A stretch of 55,310 nt of DNA, taken from NCBI GenBank assembly GCA_024681195.1, contig JAILBH010000173.1, positions 1-55,310 of the forward strand, written 5' to 3'. Origin of the DNA: Treponema sp. (GTDB taxonomy: Bacteria; Spirochaetota; Spirochaetia; Treponematales; Treponemataceae). Below the pieces are notes generated by a model. That model was not told the DNA's origin and did not search any database. It worked only from the letters and a program-made list of their open reading frames with translations. The translations under genes and the position numbers were made by a program. Positions 45,808-50,255 of the stretch are shown here, piece by piece; position 1 is the first letter of the stretch, and every line of letters starts with the position of its first letter.

Positions 45808-45861
45808 TTGTTTTATCATATCTAGTGTTATATTATGTTAAAACAACACTATATATAAAAC
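45808..45861 (+). promoter_or_regulatory. nrdR-nrdD promoter with two NrdR boxes
   Basis: TTGTTT-N17-TATTAT (45808-36). Boxes TTATCATATCTAGTGT (45813-28) and ACACTATATATAAAAC (45846-61) resemble acaCwAtATaTwGtgt. Confidence 0.75.
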
Positions 45862-45883
45862 TAATTCAAAAAAGGATATTTTA

Positions 45884-46372
45884 ATGCGTTGTCCATATTG
45901 TGGGAGTTTAGAAGACAAGGTTCTTGAATCAAGAACCATGATGCACGGGGAAAGCATCCGCCGCAGGAGAGAGTGTCTCGACTGTGGTTATCGTTTCACA
46001 AGTTATGAACGCATAGACGAAAAGCCTTTTATGGTCGTAAAAAGAGACGGCCGCAGACAACCCTTTGACATGGTAAAACTTGAAAAAGGAATTGACCGCG
46101 CCCTCGAAAAACGTCCTATTCCGACAGCAATGGTAGAACAGATATCTAATGATATTGAAGACCAGGCTATTAAAATCGGAAAAGAAGCCCGCGAAATCTC
46201 CACAGCTGAATTAGGTGAACTCGTGCTGGAAAAGCTTTACAGCATCGATAAAGTTGCATACATCAGGTTTGCATCTGTGTACCGTCACTTTGAAAACCTT
46301 GATGAATTTATTACAGAAGTCAAAAATATAGATAAACGGGGTGCCCAGACAGGCACAAGAGGGGAAAAGTAA
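45884..46372 (+). CDS. nrdR: Transcriptional repressor NrdR
   Basis: MRCPYC...SR...IRRRREC..CGYRFTSYE, ATP cone, VAYIRFASVY. Confidence 0.98.
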   Translation: MRCPYCGSLEDKVLESRTMMHGESIRRRRECLDCGYRFTSYERIDEKPFMVVKRDGRRQPFDMVKLEKGIDRALEKRPIPTAMVEQISNDIEDQAIKIGKEAREISTAELGELVLEKLYSIDKVAYIRFASVYRHFENLDEFITEVKNIDKRGAQTGTRGEK

Positions 46373-48487
46373 ATGAGTGAACAGTCAATCTTTCCGGAAT
46401 GGAGAAATTTCTTAGGATCCAGTTCCGACTCAGAGACTAAGGGCTTTATTAAATCGGTAGTAAAGCGTTCAGGCGAGATAGCTGATTACGACAGATCTAA
46501 GATCGAAACAGCTATTAACAAGGCAATTGAAGCAGTAGAAAAACGTAAGGATCCGGATAGAGCTTCTGCTCTTACCGACAACGTTGAAGAAAAACTTCGT
46601 CTTCAGCTTGCAGGAGCACGTGCACACTCCATTCCTGCAATCGAAGAAATCCAGGATATCGTAGAAAGCGTACTCATCGAAGCAAACGAAGTAGAAGTAG
46701 CTAAGGCTTACATTCTTTATCGTGCCCGCCACGAAGCAGTACGTGATGCTAAAAACCTCATGGTAGACATCAACAAGACAATGGACGGATACCTTGGACA
46801 GAGCGACTGGCGCGTAAACGAAAACGCAAACGTAAACTTTTCGCTTGGAGGACTCATTCTCCACAACTCAGGTACAATCACAGCCAACTACTGGCTCAAC
46901 AATATTTATTCCAAGGAAATTGCAGAAGCTCACAAAACAGCAGCCTTCCACATTCATGACCTTTCAATGTTCTCTGGCTACTGTGCAGGTTGGTCTCTTC
47001 GCCAGCTTATTGCAGAAGGACTTGGTGGTGTTCCAGATAAAATTACTTCAACACCGGCAACTCACCTTTCTACACTTGTTAATCAGATTGTAAACTTCCT
47101 TGGAATCATGCAGAACGAATGGGCAGGTGCTCAGGCTTTCTCTTCATTCGACACATACCTTGCACCATTTATCCGTGCAGACCATCTTACCGAAAAACAG
47201 GTTCGCCAGTGCATCCAGAGCTACATTTACGGTGTAAACACACCAAGCCGCTGGGGTTCACAGGCTCCATTTACAAACATCACTCTTGACTGGGTATGTC
47301 CCGATGACCTTAAAGATAAAAAAGCTATCGTAGGTGGAAAGGAACAGGATTATACTTACGGCGACTGTCAGAAAGAAATGGATATGATCAACAAAGTATT
47401 CATTGAACTTATGATCGAAGGTGATGCAGAAGGCCGCGGTTTTGCCTACCCTATTCCAACTTACAACATCACACGCGACTTTGACTGGAATTCAGAAAAC
47501 GCAAAGCTTCTGTTTACAATGACAGCTCAGTACGGTACTCCAAACTTCCAGAACTTTGTAAACTCTGATCTTAACCCAAGCGATGTTCGTTCTATGTGCT
47601 GCCGTCTCCAGCTCGACAAGCGTGAACTCCGCCGTCGTGGTGGTGGTCTTTTTGGTGCAGACGAATTCACAGGTTCAATCGGTGTAGTAACTATCAACCT
47701 GCCGCAGATTGCATACCTTGCTAAGAACGAGGAAGAATTCTTTAAGAGACTTGATTATCTTATGGATCTTGCAAAAGAAAGCCTTTGTATCAAACGCAAG
47801 GTTATTCAGAAGCTTTATGATGGCGGACTTTTCCCTTATACCCGTCGCTATCTTAAGACACTCACAAACCACTTTAATACAATCGGTCTTTGCGGTATGA
47901 ATGAATGCTGCTTAAACTTCCTTGGCGTAGATATTTCTGATGCAAAAGGAAAGGCCTTTGCCGAAAAGGTACTTACACATATGCGCGAAAAGATGCAGGA
48001 TTATCAGGAGCAGACAGGAGACCTCTTTAACCTGGAAGCAACACCTGCAGAGTCAACTTCATATAGACTTGCACGCCATGACAAGGAACAGTTCCCTGAT
48101 ATCATTACAAGCGGAACTAATGAACCATTCTATACCAACTCTTCACAACTCCCTGTTGATTACACAGCAGATGTATTCGAAGCACTGGATCACCAGGAAG
48201 CACTGCAGACAAAGTATACCGGCGGTACAATGTTCCACGTATACATGGGCGAAGCACTCAAGGACTGGAAGAGTTGTGCAGATTTAGTACGCACTATTTC
48301 TCACAAATATAGAATTCCATTCTTTACAATTTCGCCAACATATTCAATCTGTAAGGTACACGGTTACTTGACCGGCCAGCAGTTTGAATGTCCTAAGTGT
48401 AAGGCAGAAAAAGAAAAGGCTCTTAAAGAAAAGCTTAAGGCACTGGAATTGGAAAAGGAGAAGATCCTTGCAGCATCTGCAAAATAA
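46373..48487 (+). CDS. nrdD: Class III ribonucleotide reductase, large fragment lacking the glycyl-radical loop
   Basis: ATP cone, HIHDL, YCAGWS, QNEWAGAQ, SMCCRL, EATPAES, YTGGT, CKVH...CPKC, then a coiled-coil tail; no R-x-x-G-Y motif. Confidence 0.93.
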   Translation: MSEQSIFPEWRNFLGSSSDSETKGFIKSVVKRSGEIADYDRSKIETAINKAIEAVEKRKDPDRASALTDNVEEKLRLQLAGARAHSIPAIEEIQDIVESVLIEANEVEVAKAYILYRARHEAVRDAKNLMVDINKTMDGYLGQSDWRVNENANVNFSLGGLILHNSGTITANYWLNNIYSKEIAEAHKTAAFHIHDLSMFSGYCAGWSLRQLIAEGLGGVPDKITSTPATHLSTLVNQIVNFLGIMQNEWAGAQAFSSFDTYLAPFIRADHLTEKQVRQCIQSYIYGVNTPSRWGSQAPFTNITLDWVCPDDLKDKKAIVGGKEQDYTYGDCQKEMDMINKVFIELMIEGDAEGRGFAYPIPTYNITRDFDWNSENAKLLFTMTAQYGTPNFQNFVNSDLNPSDVRSMCCRLQLDKRELRRRGGGLFGADEFTGSIGVVTINLPQIAYLAKNEEEFFKRLDYLMDLAKESLCIKRKVIQKLYDGGLFPYTRRYLKTLTNHFNTIGLCGMNECCLNFLGVDISDAKGKAFAEKVLTHMREKMQDYQEQTGDLFNLEATPAESTSYRLARHDKEQFPDIITSGTNEPFYTNSSQLPVDYTADVFEALDHQEALQTKYTGGTMFHVYMGEALKDWKSCADLVRTISHKYRIPFFTISPTYSICKVHGYLTGQQFECPKCKAEKEKALKEKLKALELEKEKILAASAK

Positions 48488-48534
48488 TTTAATTATATAT
48501 TAAAGAATTTTGCAGCTTGTTCCGAGAATTTTAG

Positions 48535-48582
48535 TGTCAAACATGTTGACAATATGGTAAAACTACACTATATTTAGTGTAG
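48535..48582 (+). promoter_or_regulatory. Internal promoter with an NrdR box for the small RNR subunit and nrdG
   Basis: TTGACA(48546-51)-N17-TATATT(48569-74); near-perfect palindrome ACACTATATTTAGTGT (48565-80) over the -10. Confidence 0.85.
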
Positions 48583-48652
48583 GTGGAATAAATATAAAGT
48601 TGTAATAATTACAAAATAAAACTTTATATGAAAATTGGGAGGAGATAAAAGT

Positions 48653-49192
48653 ATGGAAGCAAGAACTATCGAACAGATTGAAAAAGAAATTGCAGAAACA
48701 AAGGCCGAACTTAAAGACGTACACGGAAGCGAAACAGAAGTATACGCCCGCATCGTTGGTTACTACCGAGCAGTAAAGCACTGGAACAAAGGTAAGCGCG
48801 ATGAGTTTGACCAGAGAAAGATGTTCACCCTTGAAGCAAGCAAGGAATACGATATAACAGCTGCAGACGAACCATGTGTTAGAACTGCACCTGCAAAAAT
48901 GAATAAAACCGAAGAGCACCCTGTAATGAATACAGAAGCCGCTACTTATGAAATGTATACAAGAAAGACATGTCCAAACTGTCCTCCTGTAAAAGCATTC
49001 ATGGCAAATGTAGAAATTCCTGGACGCAACATTGATGTAGATTCAGAAGAAGGACTTGCAGAAGCCGGAAACAAAGGAGTATTTGCAGCTCCAACTGTAA
49101 TTTTCTATAACAATGCCGGTGTAGAAACCGCACGCTGCCACAACGTTGAAGAACTTGAGGCAGTATTCAACAAGGTAGCAGTTACAGCATAA
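48653..49192 (+). CDS. NrdD C-terminal glycyl-radical module fused to a thioredoxin/glutaredoxin-like domain
   Basis: EVYARIVGYYRAVKHWNKGKRDEFDQRK, then YTRKTCPNCPPVK...VDSEEG...APTVIF; GGAGG SD before ATG 48653. Confidence 0.9.
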   Translation: MEARTIEQIEKEIAETKAELKDVHGSETEVYARIVGYYRAVKHWNKGKRDEFDQRKMFTLEASKEYDITAADEPCVRTAPAKMNKTEEHPVMNTEAATYEMYTRKTCPNCPPVKAFMANVEIPGRNIDVDSEEGLAEAGNKGVFAAPTVIFYNNAGVETARCHNVEELEAVFNKVAVTA

Positions 49193-49195
49193 ATC

Positions 49196-49948
49196 ATGTC
49201 AACACTACCCTTAGACAAACCTGCCGGAGTTCTGGTAAAGACAACTTGTGTTGATTACCCGGGCCTACTGGCAGGTTCTTTTTTTCTAAAAGGATGCAAT
49301 CTCCGCTGCCCCTACTGCTACAATGTAGGTCTTGTCCTTGGTAAAGATGACGGCACTCAGCCGCTGAATACAGTGCAGGAACTTTTTGATCACCTTGAAA
49401 AACGACAGGGCATCCTTAAAGGTCTTACAATAAGCGGCGGAGAACCATTGATTAATCCTTACACACCTCTTATTATTCGTAAAGCCCGCGAACTTGGTTA
49501 CCAGATAAAACTGGACACCAACGGCACACTTCCCGACGAACTGGAAGCCTTTTTGGATAACCCCGAACTGCGTCCCGACTTTATAGCCATGGACATAAAG
49601 ACCACACCTTCCAGATACGCACAAATTATTTGCCCCGCCTTCAGTAACTTTTACGGAAACAAAGAACACTTTGAACATGTAGTATCAAGAACCGCAAAAT
49701 TAGTAGCCTCCTACCCCGCCGACAAACGTGAATGGCGAACAGTCCTGGTCCCACCGCTTGTCCAGAAAGAAGACATCGATGCCATGGCCGCAGTTTTGCC
49801 CAAAGACGCCAGCTGGCAGTTTGCCCAGTTTATGAACAAAAACTGCATCGACCCATCCTATAATGAAATCTACCCCTACACCGACCAGGAAGCCAGCGAC
49901 TTAATAGAATATGCAAAAAAATTAATCCCCGGTGCCAATTTACGCTAA
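49196..49948 (+). CDS. nrdG: Anaerobic RNR activating radical-SAM enzyme
   Basis: VDYPG, GCNLRCPYCYN, SGGEP, KLDTNG, AMDIK. Confidence 0.93.
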   Translation: MSTLPLDKPAGVLVKTTCVDYPGLLAGSFFLKGCNLRCPYCYNVGLVLGKDDGTQPLNTVQELFDHLEKRQGILKGLTISGGEPLINPYTPLIIRKARELGYQIKLDTNGTLPDELEAFLDNPELRPDFIAMDIKTTPSRYAQIICPAFSNFYGNKEHFEHVVSRTAKLVASYPADKREWRTVLVPPLVQKEDIDAMAAVLPKDASWQFAQFMNKNCIDPSYNEIYPYTDQEASDLIEYAKKLIPGANLR

Positions 49949-50166: not shown

Positions 50167-50179
50167 TCAAACATTGCAT

Positions 50180-50252
50180 GGGGATATAGCTCAGTTGGTA
50201 GAGCACACGGCTCATATCCGTGCGGTCATAGGTCCGAGTCCTATTGTCCCTA
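50180..50252 (+). tRNA. tRNA with CAU anticodon, probably elongator Met; CCA not encoded
   Basis: Acceptor GGGGATA/TGTCCCT, D arm GCTC-AGTTGGTA-GAGC, anticodon arm CACGG-CTCATAT-CCGTG, T arm ATAGG-TCCGAGT-CCTAT. No C1:A72 mismatch or GGG/CCC stem, so not initiator; Ile2 not excluded. Confidence 0.92.
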
Positions 50253-50255
50253 TAT

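Follow-up and report, generated by a model that had tools for sequence, protein, structure and literature searches.

The analysed window, a 55,310-nucleotide contig from a Treponema sp. genome, carries on its forward strand a cluster of genes for class III ribonucleotide reductase (RNR), in which the catalytic protein NrdD is encoded by two genes. The elements of the locus are as follows.

45884..46372, + strand: nrdR, RNR transcriptional repressor, abutting nrdD (TIGR00244, 173 bits; cut-off 125).
46373..48487, + strand: NrdD large chain, 704 aa, with ATP cone, catalytic barrel, Zn site and predicted docking helix, and without a glycyl loop (Pfam NRDD 1-531/562; ATP-cone 28-121; PRK08270, 1087 bits).
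46982..46984, + strand: C204, conserved redox cysteine, aligning with T. maritima C125.
47594..47602, + strand: M408-C409-C410, finger-loop motif (MCCR) of the large chain.
48035..48037, + strand: E555, proposed proton-donor Glu, aligning with T. maritima E495.
48350..48400, + strand: Zn site C660-H663...C673-C676, which stays on the large chain.
48401..48481, + strand: predicted docking helix A (677-703), core L684, L688, L691, K695 and I698; assigned from an AF2 helix at 674-703, conservation and its place in the interface of the complex model.
48546..48574, + strand: sigma-70-like promoter in the gap between nrdD and the small gene, TTGACA-17-TATATT, 11/12 (consensus match only).
48565..48580, + strand: NrdR-box-like palindrome overlapping the -10 element, 15/16 to an NrdR-box consensus.
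48653..49192, + strand: small chain, 179 aa from ATG, with predicted docking helix, strand, glycyl loop, tail, variable tether and redoxin.
48668..48721, + strand: predicted docking helix B (6-23), core I6, I9, I13, T16, L20 and V23; AF2 helix 6-21.
48758..48760, + strand: G36 (GGT), radical glycine of RIVGY, invariant in 57/57 aligned small chains.
48944..49186, + strand: thioredoxin-fold domain (98-178) with CPNC at 107-110 and P147-T148; pLDDT 94-98 over 101-170.
49196..49948, + strand: nrdG, radical-SAM activase, 3 bp past the small gene (TIGR02495 NrdG2, 126 bits; cut-off 131).

The Pfam NRDD model is divided over two ORFs, with positions 1-531 of 562 on the large chain and 531-562 on the small chain. 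This agrees with an earlier, sequence-only reading of the locus, which held that NrdD ends past its Zn site and that its radical glycine lies on a separate 179-aa ORF; the GGT codon at 48758-60, the 165-bp gap and the CPNC motif were likewise all where that reading had placed them. The two ORFs are in the same frame, with four in-frame stops including that of nrdD, and a GGAGGAG ribosome site lies upstream of the small-ORF ATG. Assembled RNA contigs, which carry no start, level or strand, cover both ORFs, and no other NRDD match was found in the genome of origin (77% complete). As a member of the NrdD barrel family the large chain scores above the cut-off for both PRK08270 and TIGR02487 (480 bits), its four Zn ligands are invariant in 57/57 sequences and nrdG is adjacent, but the RxxGY loop is on the 179-aa chain, and the enzyme is complete only as a complex. 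Source records wrongly label such split nrdD genes as truncated or hypothetical.

The sequence-only reading had proposed looking for a continuous nrdD in reads and orthologues, and surveying genomes for truncated nrdD genes accompanied by a small radical-loop ORF. The pair proved widespread: both pieces, with a conserved cut site, were found in 93/151 sampled genomes of the order, while 8/151 carry this subfamily as a single chain (split to fused about 12 to 1), so that the two-chain form dominates this order of spirochaetes, whose members live in the gut, the mouth and the environment. The frame offsets between the ORFs are spread across all three frames (31/19/35 of 85 and 45/43/48 of 136), gaps in relatives run from -22 to 319 bp, and a contig of another public run (X1 record 5, 48419-48730) bridges the stop and gap. 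Given this distribution, the spread offsets and the bridging contig, the split is neither chance nor an assembly error. An artefact, a pseudogene or a single product joined by read-through, frameshift or splicing is extremely improbable: the ORFs do share a frame in this genome, but the four in-frame stops, the random offsets and variable gaps of relatives, the unlinked genes described below and the lack of an Rfam intron match all oppose it, and the invariant catalytic residues speak against decay.

In complete genomes of one genus (g15), the small gene and nrdG lie ~550 kb from nrdD, and at 8 further loci the small gene keeps nrdG with no nrdD upstream; the small piece must therefore act in trans. 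The split enzyme was the only RNR found in five genomes that are 98-100% complete (G062, G143, G164, G173 and G176), where the class II search by PF02867 may miss divergent enzymes. The suggestion that this is an obligate two-part enzyme is supported. The small gene is single-copy in 100/102 genomes having a match; some sets exclude G168 and G104, which are short or cut by a contig end, and the small gene of G005 contains Ns. A second split type occurs in the same phylum, cut at the same site with another appendage and without the helices, so helices are not required for every split, and MGCR-type NrdD was also found split. A phage search gave two records. Neither encodes a small chain with both helix and redoxin, and one of them, an unverified record, carries a single-chain fusion.

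NrdD is described as one chain throughout the literature searched, and we found no split class III RNR there; RNRdb and Table S1 of PMC6187632 may contain examples of such fusions or splits. Single-chain NrdD2 enzymes (T. maritima 4COI/4U3E; N. bacilliformis; PMC4493059, PMC9669993) share the barrel, double-Cys finger loop, Glu, Zn site, RxxGY loop and NrdG activase, whereas here the Gly loop is on a second gene, a clasp and a tethered redoxin are added, and the finger-loop Met is kept. In the available text of PMC5704485, the split class II RNR NrdJa/NrdJb of P. aeruginosa likewise encodes its redox-active C-terminal part separately, but is a B12 enzyme whose separate part is a Cys-rich shuttle and not the radical site. 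Phage nrdD and nrdA genes split by introns, inteins or endonucleases are also in pieces, and are presented in the available text of PMC3653736 as sporadic products of mobile elements or decay; here, in contrast, the cut site is conserved, docking helices have evolved and no mobile element is present.

We consider it likely (probability roughly 0.72) that this class III RNR is made of two chains, the break falling within the glycyl-radical domain just past the Zn site, and that an antiparallel coiled-coil clasp probably holds them together. Heptads are found on both sides of the cut: across 193 pairs, core positions A8/A12/A15 are large hydrophobic residues in 99-100% and B9/B13/B20/B23 in 95-100%. 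When all 360 inter-helix pairs were ranked by phylogenetic contrasts over 116 rows, the top three anti-correlated charge pairs were E692-K17 (-0.65), K687-E12 (-0.49) and K695-E10 (-0.47). All three fit a single antiparallel coiled-coil register, for which e-e', g-g' and a-e' pairs are expected. For the swaps, independent-pairs sign tests had 1 and 2, then 2 and 3 pairs, numbers at which significance is unreachable, and only 2 of the 6-7 K687-E12 reversals coincide on one branch. The sequence-only reading had also proposed docking by complementary net charge, here +3 (677-704) and -3 (2-23). The conserved helices and position-specific swaps uphold part of this idea, but net-charge complementarity failed as a general rule, a positive large chain facing a negative small one in only 28/87 taxonomically spread pairs and in 93/193 pairs of the larger set.

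Modelling the two chains as a complex, as had been suggested, gave a score of 0.84 against 0.00 for the best of 3 controls; the mark applied is reached by 116/157 solved pairs and 2/215 mismatched pairs. Runs agreed in at least 70% of contacts, with a partner pLDDT of 70-72, and the heptad faces of helices A and B both lie within the interface. The strongest contacts are those of the strand pair 656-659/28-32, and the 25 best include one inter-helix core pair (684-16), compatible with the register without fixing it. This pass may stem from resemblance to solved single-chain NrdD and so cannot count as independent proof of the helix pairing. According to the model, small-chain residues 27-33 would pair with large-chain 654-660, G36 would enter the barrel, and the tail (43-63) would lie over the active-site flap. 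Helices 677-703 and 6-23 are predicted to zip through L684-L20, L688-T16, L691-I13 and K695-I9, flanked by predicted salt bridges K687-E12, E692-K17 and K695-E10, and the coiled coil would replace the lost peptide bond.

By analogy with known NrdD chemistry, NrdG, presumably co-transcribed with the small gene, would install the radical on G36 once the domain flips out, the clasp holding the glycyl loop attached meanwhile. The radical would then pass to a finger-loop cysteine, and turnover would leave a C204-C409/410 disulfide, to be re-reduced by the tethered CPNC domain, itself fed by thioredoxin reductase. The split offers a way to ask if the free small chain can receive a glycyl radical, which would make a tractable NrdG-substrate complex.

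The main consequence of the split may be separate control of the radical-bearing half and its activase. Among 13 sites in 4.8 kb the gap promoter scores best, and a similar TTGACA and box lie ahead of the unlinked small gene in relatives. The palindrome, scored against an NrdR-box consensus, is the best site in the genome, was matched in 0/100 shuffles at 1 mismatch, and recurs in 43/60 related gaps of at least 70 bp; outside family f1 it is absent (0/21 long gaps). In the window, the region before nrdR has no strong NrdR box, and 2/41 related upstream regions have one at the same threshold. Because NrdR senses ATP/dATP (PMC9110341), the gap box points to nucleotide rather than oxygen control.

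Single-chain relatives bear both on the clasp and on how the split arose. In 104/106 parsed single chains the junction is a plain 8 residues, but P0279 and P0408 carry both helices as a covalent hairpin with a 7-residue loop closing A22-B6, and the P0280 cluster has a shortened hairpin with a 5-residue loop closing A12-B16. These natural hairpins support docking through the paired helices. Re-fusion is well indicated in P0276 and P0396; at the deep forks, on which the root and the first origin of the split depend, SH-aLRT is mostly 81-91. The coiled-coil hairpin may have been inserted at a tolerant surface site, where repeated breakage and re-joining left a permanent heterodimer of no selective benefit, a reading that we hold to be a serious minority possibility. 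It draws on the non-monophyly of the coiled-coil split forms (p-AU 0.002, 61 rows), with single chains nested among them, on the co-occurrence of hairpin, shortened hairpin, remnant and no hairpin within one clade, and on an 885-aa fused lineage ~95% identical to 704-705-aa split chains, in which the first three helix-A residues are joined to the TEVY strand. Set against it are the 12-to-1 excess of split over fused forms and the conserved promoter box of the small gene in one family. Our preferred explanation, too, holds the split to be reversible. Hairpin and re-fused relatives provide ready-made controls.

The docking model can be extended, without being replaced, by the proposal that the small chain is an exchangeable part: oxygen would cut at G36, 179 residues rather than ~880 would be discarded, and the intact barrel would be reloaded with a fresh, NrdG-activated chain. 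This is a doubtful addition. Oxygen cleavage of glycyl-radical enzymes and rescue of pyruvate formate-lyase (PFL) by YfiD/GrcA provide the precedent in the available text of PMC13450708 and PMC8683613. The promoter and NrdR-like box before the small gene and nrdG, retained when the pair moves, fit the proposal, as do the persistence of the split (93 versus 8 of 151) despite easy re-fusion, the second split type at the same site and the split MGCR-type NrdD. However, a cut at G36 would leave residues 1-35, with the helix, the strand and most of the best contacts, on the barrel, a stump that must leave for repair. The small gene's near-universal single copy, a box that suggests nucleotide control and is missing outside f1, and the viability of re-fused lineages (P0396 is on 123 contigs) also weigh against it. 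YfiD/GrcA and T4 Y06I are likewise small, free-standing proteins with a radical glycine, but PFL is made whole and YfiD/GrcA is its backup, whereas the large chain here is made without a Gly loop and needs the small chain from the outset. A 2026 review (PMC13450708), in its available text, limits known spare-part proteins to the formate lyases; if the proposal is true, the small chain would be the first example beyond that group of a replaceable glycyl-radical subunit built into the enzyme. With the split, the cell could produce the fragile part separately and perhaps renew it. The two-chain form also offers a way to ask if radical modules exchange between barrels and if class III RNR is repaired in anaerobes after exposure to oxygen.

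The C-terminal domain bears out the prediction of a thioredoxin/glutaredoxin-like fold. It has the thioredoxin fold, CxxC and conserved Pro motif, and all Foldseek hits listed are thioredoxin-fold. Its family scores lie under every NrdH/Grx/Trx cut-off (best PF00462, 21.8 versus 22.9). CxxC is present in 85/94 small chains, including all 85 that have the domain. The sequence-only reading had made conservation of both helices and CPNC domain a touchstone; the heptads hold across the 193 pairs, and the domain is lost in 8 small chains, among them that of G164, one of the five genomes with no other RNR found. The redoxin did not arise with the split. Single-chain fusions of the PRK08270 subfamily, common in Firmicutes and Fusobacterium, have the CPNC domain behind the Gly loop on one chain, with the 8-residue junction and no helices; among those listed, CxxC is present in 120/120, Glu in 120 and MCCRL in 119. 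These forms were recovered with a fused query, and a search for longer forms that used only the redoxin as query gave no match. One grx::nrdD fusion, from Lachnospiraceae TWA4, is in print according to the available text of PMC6187632. The redoxin would have been inherited, since the subfamily already carried it on the C-terminal side of the cut.

Whether this domain reduces the RNR is the weakest step of our preferred explanation. The assignment to thioredoxin-using NrdD2 enzymes holds in that C409-C410 and E555 (the Glu position named as residue 495 in T. maritima; PMC9669993) are invariant in 57/57, giving the third cysteine and Glu of NrdD2. It fails in that the thioredoxin-only type has Glu without Met, and M408 is invariant in 57/57 aligned large chains; a Met-retaining motif leaves formate or thioredoxin use open (PMC9669993). 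The CPNC domain could instead serve NrdG, protect cysteines or be a passenger, with formate or free thioredoxin as reductant. The retained Met, the 8 losses and a free thioredoxin in the same genome favour this, but we think it unlikely, since CxxC is kept in every domain-bearing small chain and in all 120 fused relatives, and since Grx fused to NrdB is described as an efficient RNR reductant in the available text of PMC6187632. In the complex model the redoxin (95-179) makes no confident contact, which is uninformative either way on binding. The split enzyme offers a way to ask if MCCR-type enzymes are reduced by a tethered redoxin. No trxB was found beside any split locus (347 loci, limited flank; matches only at L076 and L347). 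TrxB is encoded in the genome of origin, and at L347 a thioredoxin-reductase-like gene comes immediately after the single-chain fusion.

The nrdD locus of the window is a cluster of four genes in one direction:

45884-46372, forward strand, nrdR
46373-48487, forward strand, nrdD (large chain, 704 aa)
48653-49192, forward strand, small chain (179 aa, carrying radical G36)
49196-49948, forward strand, nrdG

A tRNA-Met(CAT) lies behind nrdG (50179-50253). Profile matching assigned Pfam NRDD positions 1-531 to the large chain and 531-562 to the small chain. The 165-bp gap between the two keeps the frame but contains four stops, NrdD's own included, and the ATG of the small ORF is preceded by a ribosome site. 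Recomputation confirmed the coordinates and charges of the sequence-only reading. In the source genome (77% complete), neither a further NRDD match nor a class I/II RNR barrel was found. Close relatives carry Treponema as source name, and the stretch is present in ruminant gut runs.

That nrdD is naturally split, and not one continuous gene, held true in relatives. Excluding MGCR-type genes (another NrdD sort) and contig-cut fragments, 151 genomes drawn from the order yielded a truncated large chain in 94, a small chain in 94 and both in 93, with a single-chain NrdD of this subfamily in 8. A search with the small-chain alignment, a query biased toward split forms, returned 160 further loci: both ORFs in 136, the small ORF alone in 24 (mostly near contig ends), and none fused. 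Frame offsets between the two ORFs are random, and gaps among relatives range from -22 to 319 bp. The pieces are unlinked in genus g15, where ~550 kb separates nrdD from the small gene and nrdG; at eight further loci nrdG sits behind the small gene with no nrdD upstream. Five genomes that are 98-100% complete (G062, G143, G164, G173 and G176) yielded no RNR other than this split pair, and helix-loop-redoxin small chains also occur elsewhere in the phylum, in further orders. Within the genus, several genomes have an additional, intact NrdD from a different subfamily as well as the split one (e.g. G078, G086, G090, G106, G122, G130, G137, G140, G170). G104 has, 4 kb away from its small gene, a degenerate second copy (L146:4368-4847) whose helix is short and whose CxxC is gone. 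In the openly accessible literature searched, a class III RNR conserved as two chains did not turn up. That literature describes split class II enzymes, also in pieces but of another class, phage genes split by mobile elements, whereas the split here is conserved, and PFL spare parts. We conclude that the two-chain class III RNR is a real and new form.

Large-chain residues C204, C409, C410 and E555 align to T. maritima C125, the SCCR cysteines and E495, the last being the proton-donor column of PMC9669993, and this set fits the NrdD2 definition of PMC4493059. The cysteine pair and Glu of the proposed thioredoxin-using type are thus present, but exclusive thioredoxin use is not upheld, since the Met of the MCCR finger-loop motif is invariant among aligned large chains and such Met-bearing enzymes are equipped for formate or thioredoxin alike (PMC9669993). 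The cut falls within the glycyl-radical domain. In P. copri this domain is mobile and is made up of the Zn site, the Gly loop and the tail (PMC11226230); the domain has to flip out for NrdG (PMC12662201). We therefore infer that a separate Gly loop requires a new tether.

AF2 models place a helix, gained at the cut, on both chains (large 674-703, small 6-21). Across 193 distinct pairs, positions L684, L688 and L691 and I9, I13, L20 and V23 are 95-100% large hydrophobic. The charge complementarity first proposed does not hold as a rule of net charge (large-positive/small-negative in 28/87 spread pairs and 93/193 pairs), but specific residue pairs are anti-correlated: on a tree of 116 large chains, the top three negative charge contrasts among 360 pairs were E692-K17 (r = -0.65), K687-E12 (-0.49) and K695-E10 (-0.47). 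In coiled-coil geometry, these are flanking pairs of one antiparallel register. At 692/17, E/K to K/E swaps occur in 8 rows, three times on the same branch; independent-pairs sign tests on charge swaps were not significant, with too few pairs. Single-chain relatives serve as a natural control: P0279 keeps both helices, with a 7-residue loop exactly at the register end and salt-bridge pairs intact, and in cluster P0280 the hairpin is symmetrically shortened; helices are wholly absent from 104/106 parsed single chains. Modelled as a complex, the pair scored 0.84, whereas none of three controls scored above 0.00, consistent with the docking envisaged earlier; the mark used is reached by 116/157 solved and 2/215 mismatched pairs, and split-gene halves can pass it by likeness to solved NrdD. 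Runs shared at least 70% of contacts (partner pLDDT 70-72), with the heptad faces of both helices within the modelled interface. Docking of the two chains by their helices is well supported.

Predicted structure and structure search identify small-chain residues 98-178 as a thioredoxin fold, lying 45-121 residues behind the radical glycine (n = 244). CxxC is present in 85/94 small chains; the domain is missing from seven of genus g15 and from G164, and is broken by Ns in G005. The redoxin noted on the Gly-loop chain is genuine but not special to the split: because 188 single-chain NrdD-redoxin relatives were found (names including Butyrivibrio, Eubacterium, Lachnospiraceae, Clostridia and Fusobacterium), with CxxC and Glu in 120/120 among the matches listed, the split cannot be what produced the fusion. 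PMC6187632 mentions one grx::nrdD fusion and reports that a fused Grx reduces a class I RNR. TrxB is present in the source genome, and the redoxin is likely a reductant, its likeliest role being a tethered one fed by TrxB (probability roughly 0.65). In one single-chain record, L347 (1036-4356), the NrdD-CPNC gene is immediately followed by a gene resembling thioredoxin reductase. This unverified record, filed as phage but bacterial in appearance, also has an activase-like ORF, and an integrase-like ORF adjoins these genes.

The split forms with a coiled coil do not group as a single clade (p-AU 0.002). A fused 885-aa lineage on 123 contigs shares ~95% identity with split chains of 704-705 aa and no longer has either helix; fused and split chains share one 90% cluster (P0276/P0396), best read as a recent re-fusion in which both helices were deleted. 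Other families of the phylum have, at 14 loci (L327-L333, L335-L340, L346), a second kind of split at this site that lacks helices. Here the Zn site ends CPxxH and the large chain ends ELxxYG..; the small chain, of 50-65 aa, has neither helix nor redoxin and may dock through a strand. The single chain L345 belongs to this clade and carries a long insert at the junction. In a third version, present in three treponeme genomes (L049, L050, L063), an MGCR-type NrdD is split from its Gly loop, which lies on an ORF of 55-60 aa.

Such repeated splitting at one site, the strong retention of the split and a separate predicted promoter shared with the activase would suit a small chain that repairs oxygen damage as a spare part. 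We consider this role possible but less likely than not: oxygen cleavage would leave a stump of helix plus strand attached to the barrel, the small gene is single-copy in 100/102 genomes, no oxygen-linked signal was seen, and re-fused forms are viable. Spare-part proteins are known for formate lyases only, according to PMC13450708.

The gap between nrdD and the small gene contains a sigma-70 consensus match (11/12), overlapped by a palindrome matching an NrdR consensus at 15/16, a score reached by 0/100 shuffles and the best such site in the genome. NrdR-like boxes recur in 43/60 related gaps of at least 70 bp and in 0/18 shorter ones; by family, they occur in 15/21 long gaps in f1 and 0/21 elsewhere. 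The predicted promoter and recurring box suggest that the small gene and nrdG can form their own transcription unit, likely under nucleotide control. Upstream of nrdR (45820-45865), two degenerate NrdR-box half-matches, weaker than the gap box, were seen by eye.
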